Positions 547-18,564 of a DNA stretch of 64,000 nucleotides are shown here, piece by piece (positions within the stretch are counted from its first letter, which is position 1; every line of letters begins with the position of its first letter). The stretch lies in the NCBI GenBank assembly GCA_963717115.1, contig CAVQVO010000009.1, forward strand, positions 38,788 to 102,787, written 5' to 3'. Made by a program: the position numbers and the translations under genes. Source of the stretch: an uncultured Acidimicrobiales bacterium (GTDB lineage Bacteria; Actinomycetota; Acidimicrobiia; Acidimicrobiales; SZUA-35). Below the pieces are notes generated by a model, which was not told the DNA's origin, did not search any database, and saw only the letters and a list, made by a program, of their open reading frames with translations.

Positions 547-3500
547 TCAGCCGGCGACGAGGTTCCCGAACCGGTGCAGCGTCCGGCTCACGGCCTGCTC
601 GCGCAGGAAGACGAGCAGCTCGAGTCGACCGTTGAGCGTCGGCGGGGCGTCGGAGACGTCGATCTCCGCGGCGTTGGCCAGACCCCGGAGCTCGGGGTCG
701 ACCCGTCCGAGGACCCGGACCCGATCGACGCCGCGGGCCTGCATCCGAGCGAGACCGGACTCGATCGATTCGTGCCCGGCGAGGGACTCGACCAGTTCGA
801 CCCCGCACCGTTCGGCGGCCGACCGGACCCGGCGCACGTCGACCTCGGGAACGCCGTCGCCGATCATCAGCCCGGTCGCCGGCCGAGGGCGGTAGCGGAA
901 CCGGTTGGCCTCGCAGAACAGACCACTGGGATCGTGCTCGAGCGAGAACTCCTCGGTCCACCACCGTTCGTCGCTGCGCCGGGCCGCCTCGAGCCACTCC
1001 TCGTCGTGCTCGGTGTCGCCGGTCTCGCACCACCGTCCGAGTTGGGCCACGTAGTTCGGTCCTCCGGCCTTGGCGCCCGGCCCGATCGCCGACCGCTTCC
1101 AACCGCCGAAGGGCTGGCGGCGCACGATGGCTCCCGGTGATGTGGCGGTTCACGTAGGCATTGCCGACCTCGACCCGATCGAGCCAGCGTTCGACTTCGC
1201 GGGGTTCGAGCGTGTGGATCCCGCCGGTCAGTCCGTACGGCGTGGCGTTCTGCAGGGCGATCGCCTCGTCGAGCGAACCGGCCTGCATCAGCCCGAGCAC
1301 CGGGCCGAAACACTCGGTCTGATGGAACCAGCTCCCGGCAACGACCCCCAGTCGGATCCCGGGTGACCAGAGTCGGCCCTCGTCGTCGAGTTGGCGCGGC
1401 TCGACCAACCACGACTCGCCGGCGTCGAGGTCGCGGAGCCCGCGGGCCAGCTTGCCCTCGACGGGCAGGATCACCGGCCCCGTCGTGGTGCGGAGGTCCG
1501 ACGGAGGACCGACCCGCAGGCTCTGCACGGCGTCGACGAGCTGGCGGCGGAACCGGGGCGAGTCGTAGACGTCGCCGACCAGGATCCCCAGCGAGGCCGC
1601 CGAGCACTTCTGGCCGCTGTGACCGAACGCCGATCGCACCAGGTCGGCGACGGCCAGGTCGATGTCGGCGTGCGGGTGTGACGATCAAGGCGTTCTTGCC
1701 CGACGTCTCCCCGAAGAGCGCGAGGTCGGGCTTCCAGGAACGGAACAGCTGGGCGGTCTCGAACGAGCCCGTCAGGATGACCCCGTCGACGCCGGTCACG
1801 AGGCGCCGACCGACGTCGTCGTCGGGGGTGCGCAGGAAGGCGAGGACGTCGGTCGGCACGCCGGCGGCCCAGCACGCCTCGGCGACGATCTCGGCGATCC
1901 GAGGGGTCTCGGGAGCGGGTTTGAAGGCCACGGCGTTCCCGGCGGCCAACGCCGCCAGGACGCCACCGGCCGGGATCGCCATCGGGAAGTTCCACGGGGG
2001 GATCACGGCGACCACGCCGAGCGGTTCGAACCGGAGCGCGCCCTCGGCGGTGAGGTCGGGCCCCTCGAGATCGACCGCCCGGTCGCCGTACCAGCGCGGC
2101 GAAGTCGATGCCCTCGGAGATCTCGGGGTCGGCTTCGGCAACGGTCTTGGCGCCCTCGTGCACCATCGCCGTGAGCAGCTCCGCCCGCCGGCTCGCCAGC
2201 TCGTCGGCCACCCGGTAGAGCACCGCCTGGCGTTCGGAGGCCGGTCGGGCCGCCCAGGCCACCTGCCCGTTGCGCAGCCGTTCGATGGCCCGGTCGATCT
2301 CCTCGACCGACTCGATCATCGTCGCCTGGGGGCGGCTCGGTTGGGCCGCGATGGCAGCGGCCACGAACGCCCGATTGGCGGGCAGCGCCGGGTCGGTGTC
2401 GGCTTCGTTGGCGAAGCCCCGTTCGACCGGCCAGGGATCGGGCTCGGTCAGCCGGTTCTGTCGGCGGCGAGGTCCGAGCTCGATCCGCCAACGACGATCG
2501 AGCGCTTCGCGGAAGCCATCGGCGGTCCGGGCGAACTCGGGTGTCCCCGGGGCCAGGGTGCCGAGGACCCGCAGGAAGTTGTCGGGGGCGGCGTTCTCCT
2601 CGAGGCGGCGGAACAGGTAGCTGATCGCCACGTCGAAGTCGGCCGGGGCGACGACGGGGGTGTAGAGCAGGAGCCCATCGGCCTCGTTGCGCACGACTCG
2701 GGCCTGGGCCGGCGCCATGCCCTGCAGCATCTCGAACTCGATGCGGTCGGCGACCCCGCGTTCGACACTCAGCAGGCGGACCCAGGCCACGTCGAAGAGG
2801 TTGTGGCTGGCGATCCCGAGCCGGACCGACCCGAGGTGTTCGGGTCGCAGGGCCCAGTCGAGGCAGCGCTTGTAGTTGGCGTCGGTGTCGAGCTTGGAGG
2901 TGTAGGGCGCCTGCTCCCAGCCGTGGATCGCGGCATCGACCTTCTCCATGGCCAGGTTGGCCCCCTTGACGAGGCGGACCTTGATCTCACCACCGCCCCG
3001 CCGCGCGACGGGCATCGGACCACGCAACGAGATGCTGCAGCGCCCCGAGCGCGTCGGGGAGGTAGGCCTGGAGCACGATGCCGGCGTCGAGACCGACGAA
3101 CTCGGGTTCGTCGAGCAACGACGTGAACACGGCGATCGTGAGTTCGAGATCGTGGTACTCCTCCATGTCGAGGTTGACGAAGGTCGCAGGGCTCGTTGCC
3201 GCCGCTCGGGCGAAGAGGCCACGGAGTCGTTCCACGACCCGGCGCGCGGCCTCGTCGTGATCCCAGGGATCGATCTGCGACACCACCGACGACACCTTGA
3301 CCGAGACATAGTCGACGTCGGGTTGGTCGAGCAGCGCCGAGGTGCGGGCCAGACGTCGATCGGCCTCGGCCTCGCCCAGGACGGCCTCGCCCAAGCAGGT
3401 TGACGTTGAGGTCGTAGCCCTCGGCGCGACGTTCGGCCAGGTGCCGCGCCATGCGTCGCGGTCGGGCATCGGCGACGAGGTGCCCCACGATCATGCGCAT

Positions 3501-3893
3501 CCGGCGTCGGGCGAGCGGAATGACCACCCGCGGCAGTCGGGGGGCCAGGATCCCCCCGGCCCGCAGCAGGATCCGATCGATCGGCCCGAGGAAACCCGGC
3601 AGGGTCCCCGAGGCGACGAGCGACGTCAGCTGGTCGGCGGCGGCGCCCGCGTCGTCGGGCCGGGCCACCCGATCGACGAACGCCATGGTGAAGGCCACCC
3701 CGTCGGGATCCTCGATCAACGCCTCGAGCCGACCCGAACTCGCACGATCGTCGGCGGTCTCGGTCCGCTTCGCCTCGGCCAGCCAGCGCTCGACCAGCGC
3801 CACCGACGCATCGGCGAGGCGGTCGGCATCGTTGGGGTCGGCGATCCCGCTCGGCAGATGCGCGGGAAAGGGGTCGGAGAGCAGATCGGACAT
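547..3893 (-). CDS. putA: Bifunctional proline dehydrogenase / P5C dehydrogenase PutA, interrupted by 5 single-base frameshifts (probably sequence errors)
   Basis: Successive frames give NVNLLGEAVLG, FVNLDMEEY, VLQAYL, VRLVKGAN, ASHNLFD, FEMLQGM, YLFRRLEEN, PWNFP, ETSGKN, GQKCSAAS and RQPFGGWKRS. Shifts lie near 3393, 2997, 2098, 1675 and 1134. Confidence 0.9.
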
Positions 3894-15001: not shown

Positions 15002-15994
15002 TCAGGCGAGCTGCCAGGTCGCGATCAGGGACGGGTCGCCGTCGACAGGCGTCGCACGACCCTCCTTGTGGAGCGCGAGCAGGTGGGAATACACCGAGTT
15101 CGCGGCGGCTCGCCACAGTTGTTTGGTGGTGTCGGCGTACATCGAGGGGACCAGGTCCTTGATGGTCGAGGGGCCCTCGGTCAGGGCGGCAACGATCTGG
15201 TTCTCGCGCCCCCGGCGGTGGTCGATGAACGACTGCACGTAGACCTGAGGCTCCTCGATGGCGGGACCGTGGGTGGGCCAGTAGCGGACATCGGGCCGGT
15301 CGAGCAGCTTGTGGAGGCTGGCCAGGTAGTCGAACAGGTCGCCATCGGGTGGTGAGATGACCGAGGTCGCCCATCCCATCACGTGGTCCCCGGTGAACAG
15401 CACCCGCTCGTCGACCAGTCCGAAACACACGTGGTTCGACGTGTGACCCGGCGTGTGCACGACCTCGATGGTCCAGCTGCCGTCGTCGGCGGTGATCCGA
15501 TCCCCGTCGGCGACGGCCACGTCGGGGACGAAGTCGGTGTCGGGACCCTCCCGCTTGAGTTCCTCGGGCATGTCGGCCCACTGCTTCTCGATGGTCTCCT
15601 TCTCCTCGGCGGTGAAGTACTCGTCGAACGTGATGGCCTCGAGTGGGTCGTGGTCGGGAACCGGACCGTGGGGACCGAACCCGTGGGTGACGGCACCGGT
15701 GCGGGCCTGGAGCTTGGCCACCCCGGCGGTGTGGTCGGTGTGGGTGTGGGTCACGAGGATCTTGGTGATGCGTTCGTCGGGACCGAGCGCCGCCATCACC
15801 GCATCGAGGTGTTCGTCGAGGGTGGGGCCCGGATCGATGACCGCGACCTCGCCCCGACCGACGAGGTACACCCCCGTGCCCTTGAAGGTGAACGGGTTGG
15901 GGTTCGGAGCGACGACTCGTCGGATCAGCGGCGACAACTCGCTGACGGCGCCGTAGTCGGGCTCGAAGTCTCGGTTGAAGGCAGGTCCGGCCAT
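15002..15994 (-). CDS. MBL-fold metallo-hydrolase with C-terminal winged helix (LACTB2-like)
   Basis: APNPNPFTFKGT, THTHTDH, HTPGHTSNH, FTGDHVMGW, PTHG. Confidence 0.9.
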   Translation of the reverse strand: MAGPAFNRDFEPDYGAVSELSPLIRRVVAPNPNPFTFKGTGVYLVGRGEVAVIDPGPTLDEHLDAVMAALGPDERITKILVTHTHTDHTAGVAKLQARTGAVTHGFGPHGPVPDHDPLEAITFDEYFTAEEKETIEKQWADMPEELKREGPDTDFVPDVAVADGDRITADDGSWTIEVVHTPGHTSNHVCFGLVDERVLFTGDHVMGWATSVISPPDGDLFDYLASLHKLLDRPDVRYWPTHGPAIEEPQVYVQSFIDHRRGRENQIVAALTEGPSTIKDLVPSMYADTTKQLWRAAANSVYSHLLALHKEGRATPVDGDPSLIATWQLA

Positions 15995-16182: not shown

Positions 16183-16644
16183 TCAGGTGGGAGGGCGGAG
16201 GGACTCGAGCGCCTGCATGATCCAGGCCGGTGGGCGAACCGGTCGGCCGGCGGTGTCGGTGATGGCGGCGGTCACCGTGGCCTCGATCATCACCTCGTCG
16301 CCCCGCAGGATGCGCTGGCGCCAGGTCGAGGTGGCCCGACTGGTGCGCTCGAGGCTGGTCTCGACCACGAGCACGTCACCCATCTCGGCGGCTCGCCGAT
16401 ACCGGACCCCGAGCTCGACCACCACGAACTGGAAGCCGGCGGCGGCGACCGTCCGCAGCGGCAGGCCGATGGCGTCGAGCGCCTCGGCCCGGGCCACCTC
16501 GAGGTACCCCACGTACGCCGCATGGTTCACGTGGGCGTAGGGATCGAGCTCGGCCCAGCGAACGGCGATCGTGGCCCGATGGGGGGCGGTGAAGTCGGCC
16601 ACGATGCGCGCCCCCGCGCCGTCGGTGGCCGGGCGATCAGGCAC
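16183..16644 (-). CDS. Acyl-CoA thioesterase, YbgC/4-HBT hot-dog family
   Basis: VRWAELDPYAHVNHAAYVGYLEVAR. GTG at 16644 overlaps the selD stop; alternative start at 16602. Confidence 0.88.
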   Translation of the reverse strand: MPDRPATDGAGARIVADFTAPHRATIAVRWAELDPYAHVNHAAYVGYLEVARAEALDAIGLPLRTVAAAGFQFVVVELGVRYRRAAEMGDVLVVETSLERTSRATSTWRQRILRGDEVMIEATVTAAITDTAGRPVRPPAWIMQALESLRPPT

Positions 16645-17684
16645 GGAGGTGCAGGATCCCGGCGTCGTGCGGATCGGTCGCCGGGGTGGTGGTCCCGATG
16701 TGCGCCGCCTGATGACCCGAGCCGGCCAGTTCGGCCAGCACCGACTCGACCCGGGCGGGATCGACCCCGAAGACGAGGCCACCCGAGGTCTGGGCATCGG
16801 CGAGCAGCAGGACCGAGAGATCGTCGAGCTCGCCCCGATCGACCTGCGCCTCGAGCGAGGCCAGGTTGCGCCTCGACCCACCGGGAACGAACCCGGCCCC
16901 GGCCAGTTCCCGGACTCCGTCGATGAAGGGCACGGACCCGAACGACAGCTCGACGTCGACCCCGGACTCCTTGGCCGCCCGTCCGAGATGGCCGATCAGG
17001 CCGAACCCGGTCACGTCGGTGCCACCGGTGGCGCCGGCGGCGAGGGCGATGCGGCTCGCGTCGGCGTTGAGACGCGTCATCTGGGCGATCGCCGGCGGCG
17101 ACGAGACCCTCGGGCGCCTGCCCGGCCTTGATGGCGGTGGAGATCACGCCGATCCCGAGGGGCTTGGTGAGGATCAGCGCCTGGCCGGGTCGGAGCCCGG
17201 CGTTGGTGATCAGCCGGTCGGGGTGGGCCTCGCCGAGCACCGCGAGACCGAACTTGGGTTCGGGATCGTCGACGGTGTGTCCGCCGACGAGGAAGAAGCC
17301 ACCCTCGGCCGCGACCTCGGCCGCCCCTTCGAGCACGTCGCCCAGCAGGTCGGCGGCGAGTTCGTCGGTGTTCCACCCCACGAGGTTGAGGGCGATGAGC
17401 GGGCGACCTCCCATGGCGTAGACGTCGGACACGGCGTTGCACGCGGCGATCCGACCCCAGGTCTTCGCATCGTCGACGACGGGGGTGATGAAATCGGCGG
17501 TGAAGACGAGCGCGCGGTCGGCGTCGAGGCGCCACACGGCAGCGTCGTCGCCGGTGGTGGCGTCGACGAGGATGCGGTCGTCATCGTTCGGGGTGAGACG
17601 GCCCAGCACGTGGGCCAGCTCGCTCGGGGCGAGCTTGCAGGCTCAACCGGCGCCGTGGCTGAACTCGGTGAGTCGACGAACCAT
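16637..17684 (-). CDS. selD: Selenide, water dikinase SelD, selenocysteine-containing (UGA at 17645-17643), with one frameshift near 17094
   Basis: ATG at 17684 reads MVRRLTEFSHGAG-UGA-ACKLAP, then DDAAVW, TADFITPVVDD, NAVSDVYAMGG, GGHT, LTKPLG; after the shift, TDVTGFGL and DAQTSGGL. Confidence 0.93.
17614..17642 (-). promoter_or_regulatory. Candidate bacterial SECIS hairpin
   Basis: Immediately 3' of the UGA: GCC-TGCA-AGCTCGC-(CCCGA)-GCGAGCT-GGC, a 7-bp upper stem with a G-containing loop. Confidence 0.6.
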
Positions 17685-17805
17685 GTGGCAACACCCCCTC
17701 TCGCGACCTCGGTGGTGCGGAACGACGGACGAAACGCTGGGCGGCAACCTACCGTGACAACCACCCGGCGACGAACACCCCGAACCGATCAGTGAGGACC
17801 ACCGC

Positions 17806-18564
17806 ATGCCGAGCACCGAAGCCGTCTCCTTCATCGGATCCCAGGGCCAACCGCTGGTCGGCATGCTCCACCGTCCGGACGGACCGACGCGGGGCAGCGT
17901 GCTGCTGGCCCACTGCTTCACGTGCTCCAAGGACATCCACACCCTGACCCGGTTGGCCAAGGGCCTGGCCGACGCCGGCTTCGCCGCACTCCGCTTCGAC
18001 TTCACCGGACTCGGGGACTCGGGGGGCGACTTCGGGGCAACGCACGTCAGCGCCAACGTCTCGGATCTCACCCGGGCGGCGTTCTCGCTGATCGAGATGG
18101 GCTTCGGACCGTGCGGCCTGATCGGGCACAGTCTCGGCGGCGCCGCCGCGATCCTGTCGGCCGATCGGCTCAAGACGGTCCGTTGGATCGTGACGATCGG
18201 CGCGCCGAGCTCGGTCGAGCACGTCACCCACCTCTTCGCCGATCGCCTCGCCGACATCGAGGCCGCCGGGTGCGCGCCGGTGACCATCGCCGGCCGCACC
18301 TTCGACCTGGACCGGGGGTTCCTCGACGACCTCACCAACCACGACGTCCTCCAGGCGGTTGCCGAACTCGATCGTCCCTACCTCGTCGTGCACGCCCGGG
18401 ACGACGAGGTCGTCGGCTTCGACCAGGGCCAGACCCTCTTCGCCGCCGCCGCCGAACCCAAGGCGTTCCTCGCCCTCGAGACCGGCGGGCACCTGCTCGG
18501 TCCGCGAGCCGCCGCCGAGCAGGCCCTCGCCGGCATCGTGGCCTGGCTCGACACCGTGGCCTGA
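17806..18564 (+). CDS. Alpha/beta hydrolase (type often fused to OsmC)
   Basis: AHCFTCSKD, LRFDFTGLGDS, GHSLGG, VHARDD, GGHLL. Confidence 0.88.
   Translation: MPSTEAVSFIGSQGQPLVGMLHRPDGPTRGSVLLAHCFTCSKDIHTLTRLAKGLADAGFAALRFDFTGLGDSGGDFGATHVSANVSDLTRAAFSLIEMGFGPCGLIGHSLGGAAAILSADRLKTVRWIVTIGAPSSVEHVTHLFADRLADIEAAGCAPVTIAGRTFDLDRGFLDDLTNHDVLQAVAELDRPYLVVHARDDEVVGFDQGQTLFAAAAEPKAFLALETGGHLLGPRAAAEQALAGIVAWLDTVA

Follow-up and report, generated by a model that had tools for sequence, protein, structure and literature searches.

The minus-strand gene at positions 16637 to 17684 of the window, the whole 64,000-nt stretch of DNA from an uncultured Acidimicrobiales bacterium analysed here, is very probably an ordinary, genuine selenophosphate synthetase (SelD; selenide, water dikinase) of the selenocysteine (Sec) type. 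In the assembled sequence, it contains an in-frame UGA at the catalytic position, two successive hairpins just 3' of this codon and a single extra base in its second half, which is most likely a consensus error.

Start, UGA codon and selenocysteine machinery

The gene and its elements are arranged as follows:
17694..17702, minus strand: Shine–Dalgarno-like sequence GAGAGGGGG, 9 nt 5' of the ATG at 17684–17682, assigned from sequence and conservation
16637..17684, minus strand: selD as assembled, 1048 nt, which minus one base gives 348 aa plus a stop
17643..17645, minus strand: in-frame TGA, the predicted Sec codon, residue 14, placed by alignment to Cys17 of E. coli SelD
17090..17092, minus strand: one extra base causing a +1 shift, its exact site being ambiguous in ...GCCGGCGATCGCC..., placed by alignment to relatives
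16637..17089, minus strand: C-terminal half of SelD with AIRS_C, read in the shifted frame and ending in the stop TGA at 16639–16637

A preliminary description of this DNA had placed the start at ATG 17684 behind a tract resembling a ribosome-binding site (RBS), and DNA alignment corroborated this, as the start region is kept in six close relatives and the sequence 5' of GAGAGGGGG diverges. Translation in the frame of the ATG gave MVRRLTEFSHGAG, the TGA (17645–17643) and then ACKLAPSELAHVLGRL..., with ACKLAPSEL as the residues after the TGA. That this UGA, followed by ACKLAP, lies within SelD was likewise verified, the N-terminal part alone matching the NCBIfam profile TIGR00476 (selD) with 251 bits against a cut-off of 125. 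Alignment with phmmer to E. coli SelD (PDB 3u0o; 162 bits, residues 4–188) paired U14 with C17 and K17 with K20, so that the UGA does occupy the catalytic Cys/Sec position with the Lys three residues on, as had been claimed.

The mechanical open reading frame (ORF) list is cut at the UGA, as previously remarked, with one ORF ending at 17643 at the TGA and the next beginning at GTG 17609. Taken at face value, this output matches an ordinary stop codon followed by a shorter SelD that starts downstream, e.g. at GTG 17609. We regard such an arrangement as extremely improbable because the 13 codons 5' of the TGA align with the SelD profile from its first position onward and share the conservation of the RBS, a downstream start would delete the catalytic Sec/Cys–Lys loop, and the TGA falls exactly at the Cys position of nine homologues.

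A selD match was found in 29 of 40 relatives, and the codon at the Sec site was TGA in 23 of these and TGC (Cys) in six. Among the best 80 loci from public contigs, a set comprising one genome per species and in which these loci were mostly from Acidimicrobiales, TGA was present in 77 and TGC in three; two isolate genomes, the Actinospongicola halichondriae chromosome and a Pseudonocardia acidicola isolate, were among the TGA loci. With relatives and public sets pooled, the column comprised 104 distinct sequences (95 TGA, 9 TGC), and an in-frame UGA aligned to the Cys of homologues is a hallmark of selenoprotein genes. The codon was also inspected for a TGC or TGT reading at 17645–17643: a 202-nt contig from a public run, spanning 17594–17795, was identical to the window and retained the TGA. 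The window may itself have been assembled from the sample behind this run.

The expectation that the organism decodes UGA as Sec and carries selA, selB and selC was supported by a search of its genome. The selA (403 bits) and selB (267 bits) genes, both above their cut-offs, are adjacent on one contig and each complete in one frame, selB including its C-terminal region. The same contig holds, 26 kb from selA/selB, a tRNA-Sec with anticodon UCA (Rfam 65.1 bits versus a gathering score of 47), on which ARAGORN agrees. The joint presence of selA, selB and tRNA-Sec in the same genome is a second hallmark of a selenoprotein gene. Together with the other selenoprotein genes, they reside on contigs of the binned genome other than that of selD; the contamination estimate is 2.63%. 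A search of the genome, which is 90.1% complete, for a tRNA 2-selenouridine synthase (TIGR03167) was negative, in agreement with a statement in PMC1794560 that the selenouridine trait is absent from sequenced Actinobacteria.

Further overlooked selenoproteins had been anticipated too, and two more genes with an in-frame UGA emerged. The first, on another contig, encodes a formate dehydrogenase (FDH) alpha subunit with the TGA in CNRT-U-HAPSV, which scored 633.7 bits against TIGR01591 (cut-off 666) and 226 bits against PF00384. The second encodes a 179-aa protein of the CMD/AhpD type with the TGA in a GCVF-U (CxxU) motif, and matched the NCBIfam profile NF053654, 'YciW-related (seleno)protein', from end to end with 250 bits (cut-off 310); all eight matches to this YciW-like gene among 41 genomes have the TGA. 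A genome-wide scan for in-frame TGA codons with coding signal on both sides yielded 42 candidates, mostly gene ends plus same-frame starts, with the YciW-like gene as the only credible one; its sensitivity was poor, as it missed selD and fdhA.

The frame break near position 17090

The preliminary description had selD continuing in frame down to 16637, which did not hold. The length of 1048 nt from 17684 to 16637 is not divisible by three, and similarity to the SelD profile in the start frame is confined to profile positions 1–192, beyond which this frame encodes a meaningless, Arg-rich sequence, remaining open as far as 16527. Profile positions 198–309 (96 bits to TIGR00476), AIRS_C and the stop at 16639–16637 are in a different frame. 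The Pfam domains AIRS and AIRS_C were thus both detected, each in a different frame and not in one unbroken frame of the assembled gene.

DNA alignment with six close relatives (66–84% identity) revealed exactly one extra base in the window's genome assembly (hereafter G000), with a gap at this site in all six. Consistently, tblastn with the SelD protein of the closest relative (G002) switched frame at window position 17089, the two halves being 93% and 83% identical to this protein (the latter value for the 150-aa C-terminal half) with no further lesion. A single reading frame spans selD in each of the 29 relatives in which it was matched, and a profile search detected no second selD copy in G000. 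The public data at the site consisted of Logan contigs, of which the sole one bridging it comprises 427 nt, is 97.7% identical with 10 substitutions, has one base fewer at 17090 and keeps the frame intact. Since it differs at 10 of 427 positions, it derives from another strain and leaves room for a real mutation in the window's strain. A programmed +1 frameshift at 17090 was considered and rejected on inspection, given that the zero frame has neither a stop nor a slippery site, is open to 16527, and the base is absent from all relatives.

The frequency of such breaks was assessed with tblastn between G000, G002 and G003, the last being a 530-contig assembly from the same genus. A break was counted when two abutting high-scoring pairs lay in different frames, each with at least 70% identity over at least 50 aa. 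The G002 queries were ORFs with a coding GC3 signature from 400 kb of that assembly, searched against G000. This strict count replaced an earlier loose one (38 switches, 209 ORFs), in which N-terminal extensions of stop-to-stop ORFs gave artefacts. The comparisons yielded:
G002 ORFs against G000: breaks in 15 of 196 ORFs, 19 switches, 219.6 kb aligned, one per 11.6 kb
G000 ORFs against G002 (reverse): breaks in 18 of 213 ORFs, 26 switches, 82,327 aa aligned
G000 ORFs against 400 kb of G003 (control): breaks in 1 of 132 ORFs, 1 switch, 48,151 aa aligned
G003 ORFs against G000, with the selD contig deliberately included: breaks in 6 of 67 ORFs (5 of 66 minus selD), 6 switches, 28,924 aa aligned

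The six breaks found in G000 with G003 queries are spread over four contigs, and the broken genes of G000 include, besides selD, a 1127-aa gene of the same window with five switches. G002 is about as noisy as G000, its own breaks affecting genes whose ORFs are unbroken in G000, and is not a clean reference. Frame breaks in the two assemblies with few contigs (G000 and G002) are about ten times as frequent as in the fragmented G003, which we assume to be a short-read assembly from its 530 contigs. Such an excess in genes that are otherwise 70–98% identical points to consensus indel errors rather than to gene decay.

The junctions lie outside long homopolymers, with longest runs of 2–5. A basecalling error linked to GATC/CGATCG methylation was rejected, since GATC was no more frequent at the tight junctions (4 of 16) than its background of 0.275 would predict (p = 0.68). 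The motif GCGC was nominally enriched, at 8 of 16 junctions against 0.174 (p = 0.003, uncorrected for the eight motifs), and is absent from the selD junction.

These data bear on the reading that the frameshift in selD is genuine and recent, the gene being a pseudogene in a strain that is losing its Sec pathway. The assembly does contain the extra base, which breaks the sole selD copy, and the bridging contig represents another strain. Yet selA, selB, tRNA-Sec and the two further UGA genes are intact, both SelD halves lack other damage, the 97.7%-identical contig is devoid of the base, and roughly 8–9% of conserved G000 ORFs are similarly broken versus 1 of 132 in G003. Decay of the gene is therefore quite improbable. 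The extra base near 17090 is most likely an assembly or consensus error, given a frame break in about every 12 kb of this assembly, the related contig without the base and the intact gene in all relatives; the single selD copy, the intact machinery and UGA genes, and the single frame in 29 of 29 relatives fit this as well. The break in selD is most probably one of hundreds of sequencing errors in the genome, and at the rate found, apparent pseudogenes in this assembly are untrustworthy.

Two hairpins downstream of the UGA

The stretch immediately 3' of the UGA comprises two adjacent hairpins:
17617..17635, minus strand: helix 1, AGCTCGC/CCCGA/GCGAGCT, 7 bp with the 5-nt loop CCCGA, beginning 7 nt past the UGA
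17600..17616, minus strand: helix 2, probable SelB-binding SECIS, 6 bp with the loop CGUGC (17610–17606), the loop starting 32 nt past the UGA

In 24 Sec-type genes, 88.7% of the cells of helix 1 were paired and two of its seven pairs were compensatory, as compared with 97.9% and three of six for helix 2, which was the only one recovered by RNAalifold from this set. Across 78 sequences (76 distinct; three Cys-type loci left out), the respective values were 94.5% with four of seven pairs for helix 1 and 98.2% with three of six for helix 2. None of 500 shuffles attained the observed score, and slid controls paired 24–45% of the cells. Judged by this covariation, both helices are real, conserved RNA structures. 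An outer stem pairing the UGA with a downstream CUCA, present in the minimum-free-energy (MFE) fold of the G000 sequence, was rejected, as RNAalifold across relatives lacks it.

The bacterial SECIS (bSECIS) model, as described in PMC13188914, specifies a loop of 3–9 nt, a stem of 4–16 bp, a distance of 16–37 nt from the UGA and an MFE of at most −7.5 kcal/mol, with a G within the first two loop positions that is usually followed by G or U. Helix 2 of G000 conforms to this consensus, with a 5-nt CGUGC loop, 6 bp, a spacing of 32 nt and −9.9 kcal/mol. Its counterparts conform in loop, stem and spacing in 24 of 24 genes and in energy too in 20 of 24. We note that the energy threshold was applied to isolated 17-nt hairpins, which is stricter than the published use on whole elements; four of 24 helix-2 copies failed it. 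GU occupies loop positions 2–3 of helix 2 in 95 of 95 sequences, an invariance that could be partly protein-driven as this GU sits in a conserved Val codon.

Helix 1 is the hairpin that had been put forward as the SECIS in the preliminary description. As a conserved helix it was upheld; as a SECIS it conforms to the full set of published criteria in none of 24 genes, and it probably does not carry the loop read by SelB.

The two other UGA genes provide a reference for loop design. The fdhA hairpin, GUCGUC-GGUCU-GGCGAC, has its loop 18 nt past the UGA (+22 to +26); UGA and a GGUCU-loop hairpin are present in all 20 orthologues examined in relatives, two of which have a C–G to G–C swap. These FDH hairpins (−6.8 and −7.4 kcal/mol) failed the isolated-hairpin energy threshold in 20 of 20 cases and passed the other criteria. 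The YciW-like hairpin, CGCUGC-GGUCG-GCAGCG, has its loop 17 nt past the UGA. Helix 2 of selD resembles both of these, as well as the SECIS of E. coli fdhF, in its 6-bp stem and 5-nt NGUNN loop (CGUGC, as compared with GGUCU in fdhA and GGUCG in the YciW-like gene). In the E. coli fdhF SECIS, the loop bases are numbered G23/U24. The positions differ, with the loop starting 18 nt (fdhA) and 17 nt (YciW-like) past the UGA versus 32 nt in selD, where helix 1 lies in between.

Genes with Cys in place of Sec were also inspected. Pairing in helix 2 averaged 5.88 of 6 in 95 Sec-type genes, 3.5 of 6 in four close Cys-type genes and 1.8 of 6 in five distant Cys-type genes, these last being essentially one lineage. 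For helix 1, it was 4.25 of 7 in the close and 5.8 of 7 in the distant Cys-type genes.

An assignment of helix 1 as the SelB-binding SECIS, with helix 2 as accessory or unrelated, draws on its conservation and covariation, on its loop at +18 to +22, close to that of FDH, and on the fall of its pairing in the four close Cys-type genes. It conflicts with the spacing of 14 nt versus the published 16–37 nt, with the first two loop positions, which have a G in eight of 95 distinct sequences and none in 87, with a loop that departs from the NGUNN pentaloop design seen in the FDH and YciW-like hairpins and in helix 2, and with the pairing that persists in the five distant Cys-type genes. We consider this assignment unlikely. 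Helix 2 suits the role better because it conforms to the bSECIS model and shares the loop design of the fdhA and YciW-like hairpins, and we infer that the element is probably a tandem one with the SelB contact on helix 2. Helix 1 may be a folded spacer; since it covaries too, it may also share in the SECIS function or be a competitor for it.

When the selD region and the region around the FDH UGA were compared with Rfam at E ≤ 10, no SECIS family was matched, and the hits obtained were non-SECIS ones at chance level. This null result agrees with a 2026 preprint (10.64898/2026.04.03.716425), which reports Sec-selD in Actinomarina, finds the Rfam SECIS models uninformative and describes bacterial SECIS elements as poorly represented in Rfam.

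Proposed mechanism and relation to known systems

Translation would begin at ATG 17684, and SelB with Sec-tRNA(Sec) would insert selenocysteine at the UGA at 17645–17643, i.e. at the catalytic position occupied by Cys17 in E. coli. Insertion would be directed by the two-hairpin element just 3' of the UGA, formed by helix 1 (17635–17617) and helix 2 (17616–17600), with the NGUNN loop of the latter as the likely SelB contact. The SelD product would then supply selenophosphate to SelA, so the Sec-type enzyme would depend on its own pathway. This kind of dependence is already known for enzymes of this type.

Many organisms have SelD in the form of a selenoprotein, as stated in PMC12013277; PMC13188914 places the Sec-type enzyme second among prokaryotic selenoprotein families in breadth of distribution, and PMC1794560 gives FdhA and SelD the top two ranks by abundance among bacterial selenoprotein families and lists Sec-SelD for Actinobacteria, e.g. 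Rubrobacter xylanophilus. The gene in the window resembles known bacterial Sec-SelD genes in the UGA within the N-terminal catalytic loop, the hairpin element just 3' of it and the co-occurrence of selA, selB, selC and FdhA. It departs from them in nothing essential, except that the copy in the window is frame-broken and comes from an uncultured Acidimicrobiales bacterium. With E. coli SelD (PDB 3u0o) it shares the family, the fold signature and the SHGAG-C/U-xCK loop; unlike the window's enzyme, the E. coli protein has Cys for Sec, and its gene has no SECIS.

The closest precedent for the two hairpins is the selD bSECIS of Clostridiales, for which Supplementary S6 of Mariotti et al. 2015 (PMC4561486) describes two stems in succession, of which only the downstream one, stem 2, fits the bSECIS model. 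Helices 1 and 2 share this tandem layout. Clostridiales belong to a different phylum from the window's organism, and the models named in that supplement are for Clostridiales, Campylobacter, Deltaproteobacteria and Pasteurellales only. A literature search (SECIS/selD/SelB; Acidimicrobiia selenocysteine) found no description of a selD SECIS of Acidimicrobiales, which would be an extension of the known tandem layout and not a new kind.

We tentatively propose, as a possibility that we hold less firmly than the SelB contact on helix 2, that selD of Acidimicrobiales and neighbouring Actinomycetota has a conserved two-hairpin SECIS, in which helix 1, as a folded spacer, would place the NGUNN hairpin, its loop 32 nt from the UGA, at about the through-space distance of the fdhA and YciW-like hairpins (18 and 17 nt), so that one SelB would serve two geometries.

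In practical terms, gene callers truncate selD at the UGA, and here the indel splits it as well. Automated annotation would therefore call this genome devoid of a functional SelD, and its Sec pathway might be scored as incomplete. The current understanding of selenium biology is unchanged by the selD findings, and the comparison of the helices provides a testable pair of candidate SelB-binding geometries in one organism.

Frame breaks in the assembly

Comparison with the orthologue in G002, the assembly of the closest relative, revealed one heavily interrupted gene within the window:

550-3866 (contig C9, 39337-42653), minus strand: gene with five frame switches

The G002 orthologue is a single unbroken ORF of 1127 aa, and the switches in the source assembly (G000) were located at about window positions 1130, 1674, 2096, 2996 and 3393, with an identity to G002 of 82-94% in all segments. 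The five-switch pattern is typical of consensus indel errors. By extrapolation from one break per ~12 kb, the whole 5.07-Mb assembly would contain several hundred. On C9, 8 of the 16 tight frame-break junctions have GCGC within 12 nt, compared with 0.174 in the background (p = 0.003, uncorrected for the 8 motifs), which may reflect a basecalling context effect. The selD junction is without GCGC and not concerned by this.

Further selenoprotein genes

Two genes on contig C20 of G000 were assigned through family profiles:

437333-439291 (locus L051, 1441-3399): formate dehydrogenase alpha, Sec-type, TIGR01591 match
367221-367757 (locus L127, 322-858), minus strand: third selenoprotein gene, CMD/AhpD-type, 179 aa, NF053654 match plus UGA

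The formate dehydrogenase alpha gene scored 633.7 bits, below the TIGR01591 cut-off of 666, with coverage beginning only at profile position 47, and for the N-terminal Fe-S domain no Cys-cluster motif was seen just upstream in any of the frames. The missing N-terminal part could be explained by a further indel in the assembly, by a separate gene or by a form of the protein that is truly shorter. The 179-aa protein carries a GCVF-U motif and matched the NCBIfam profile NF053654, "YciW-related (seleno)protein", with 250 bits, below the cut-off of 310. A hairpin with a GGUCG loop starts 17 nt past its UGA, and the TGA was kept in all eight matches from a search of 41 genomes.

Surroundings of selD and its Cys-type relatives

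The selD neighbours in the window were named from motifs recognised by eye in ORF translations, rather than from family-profile matches:

15002-15994: MBL-fold hydrolase-like ORF
16183-16620: thioesterase-like ORF, directly 3' of selD
17806-18564: alpha/beta-hydrolase-like ORF, divergent from selD

selD itself lies outside any sel operon, selA and selB being located on a different contig.

Cys-type selD genes were compared in five relatives of the same order (loci L046-L050), essentially one lineage. Helix 2, the probable SECIS, is lost in these genes, and the columns of helix 1 show 5-7 of 7 pairs through quite different sequence, as in AGUGGGG...CCCCACU, formed by Trp-Gly and Pro-Leu codons. 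Such pairing may represent a remnant, a re-formed structure or chance within essentially a single lineage.
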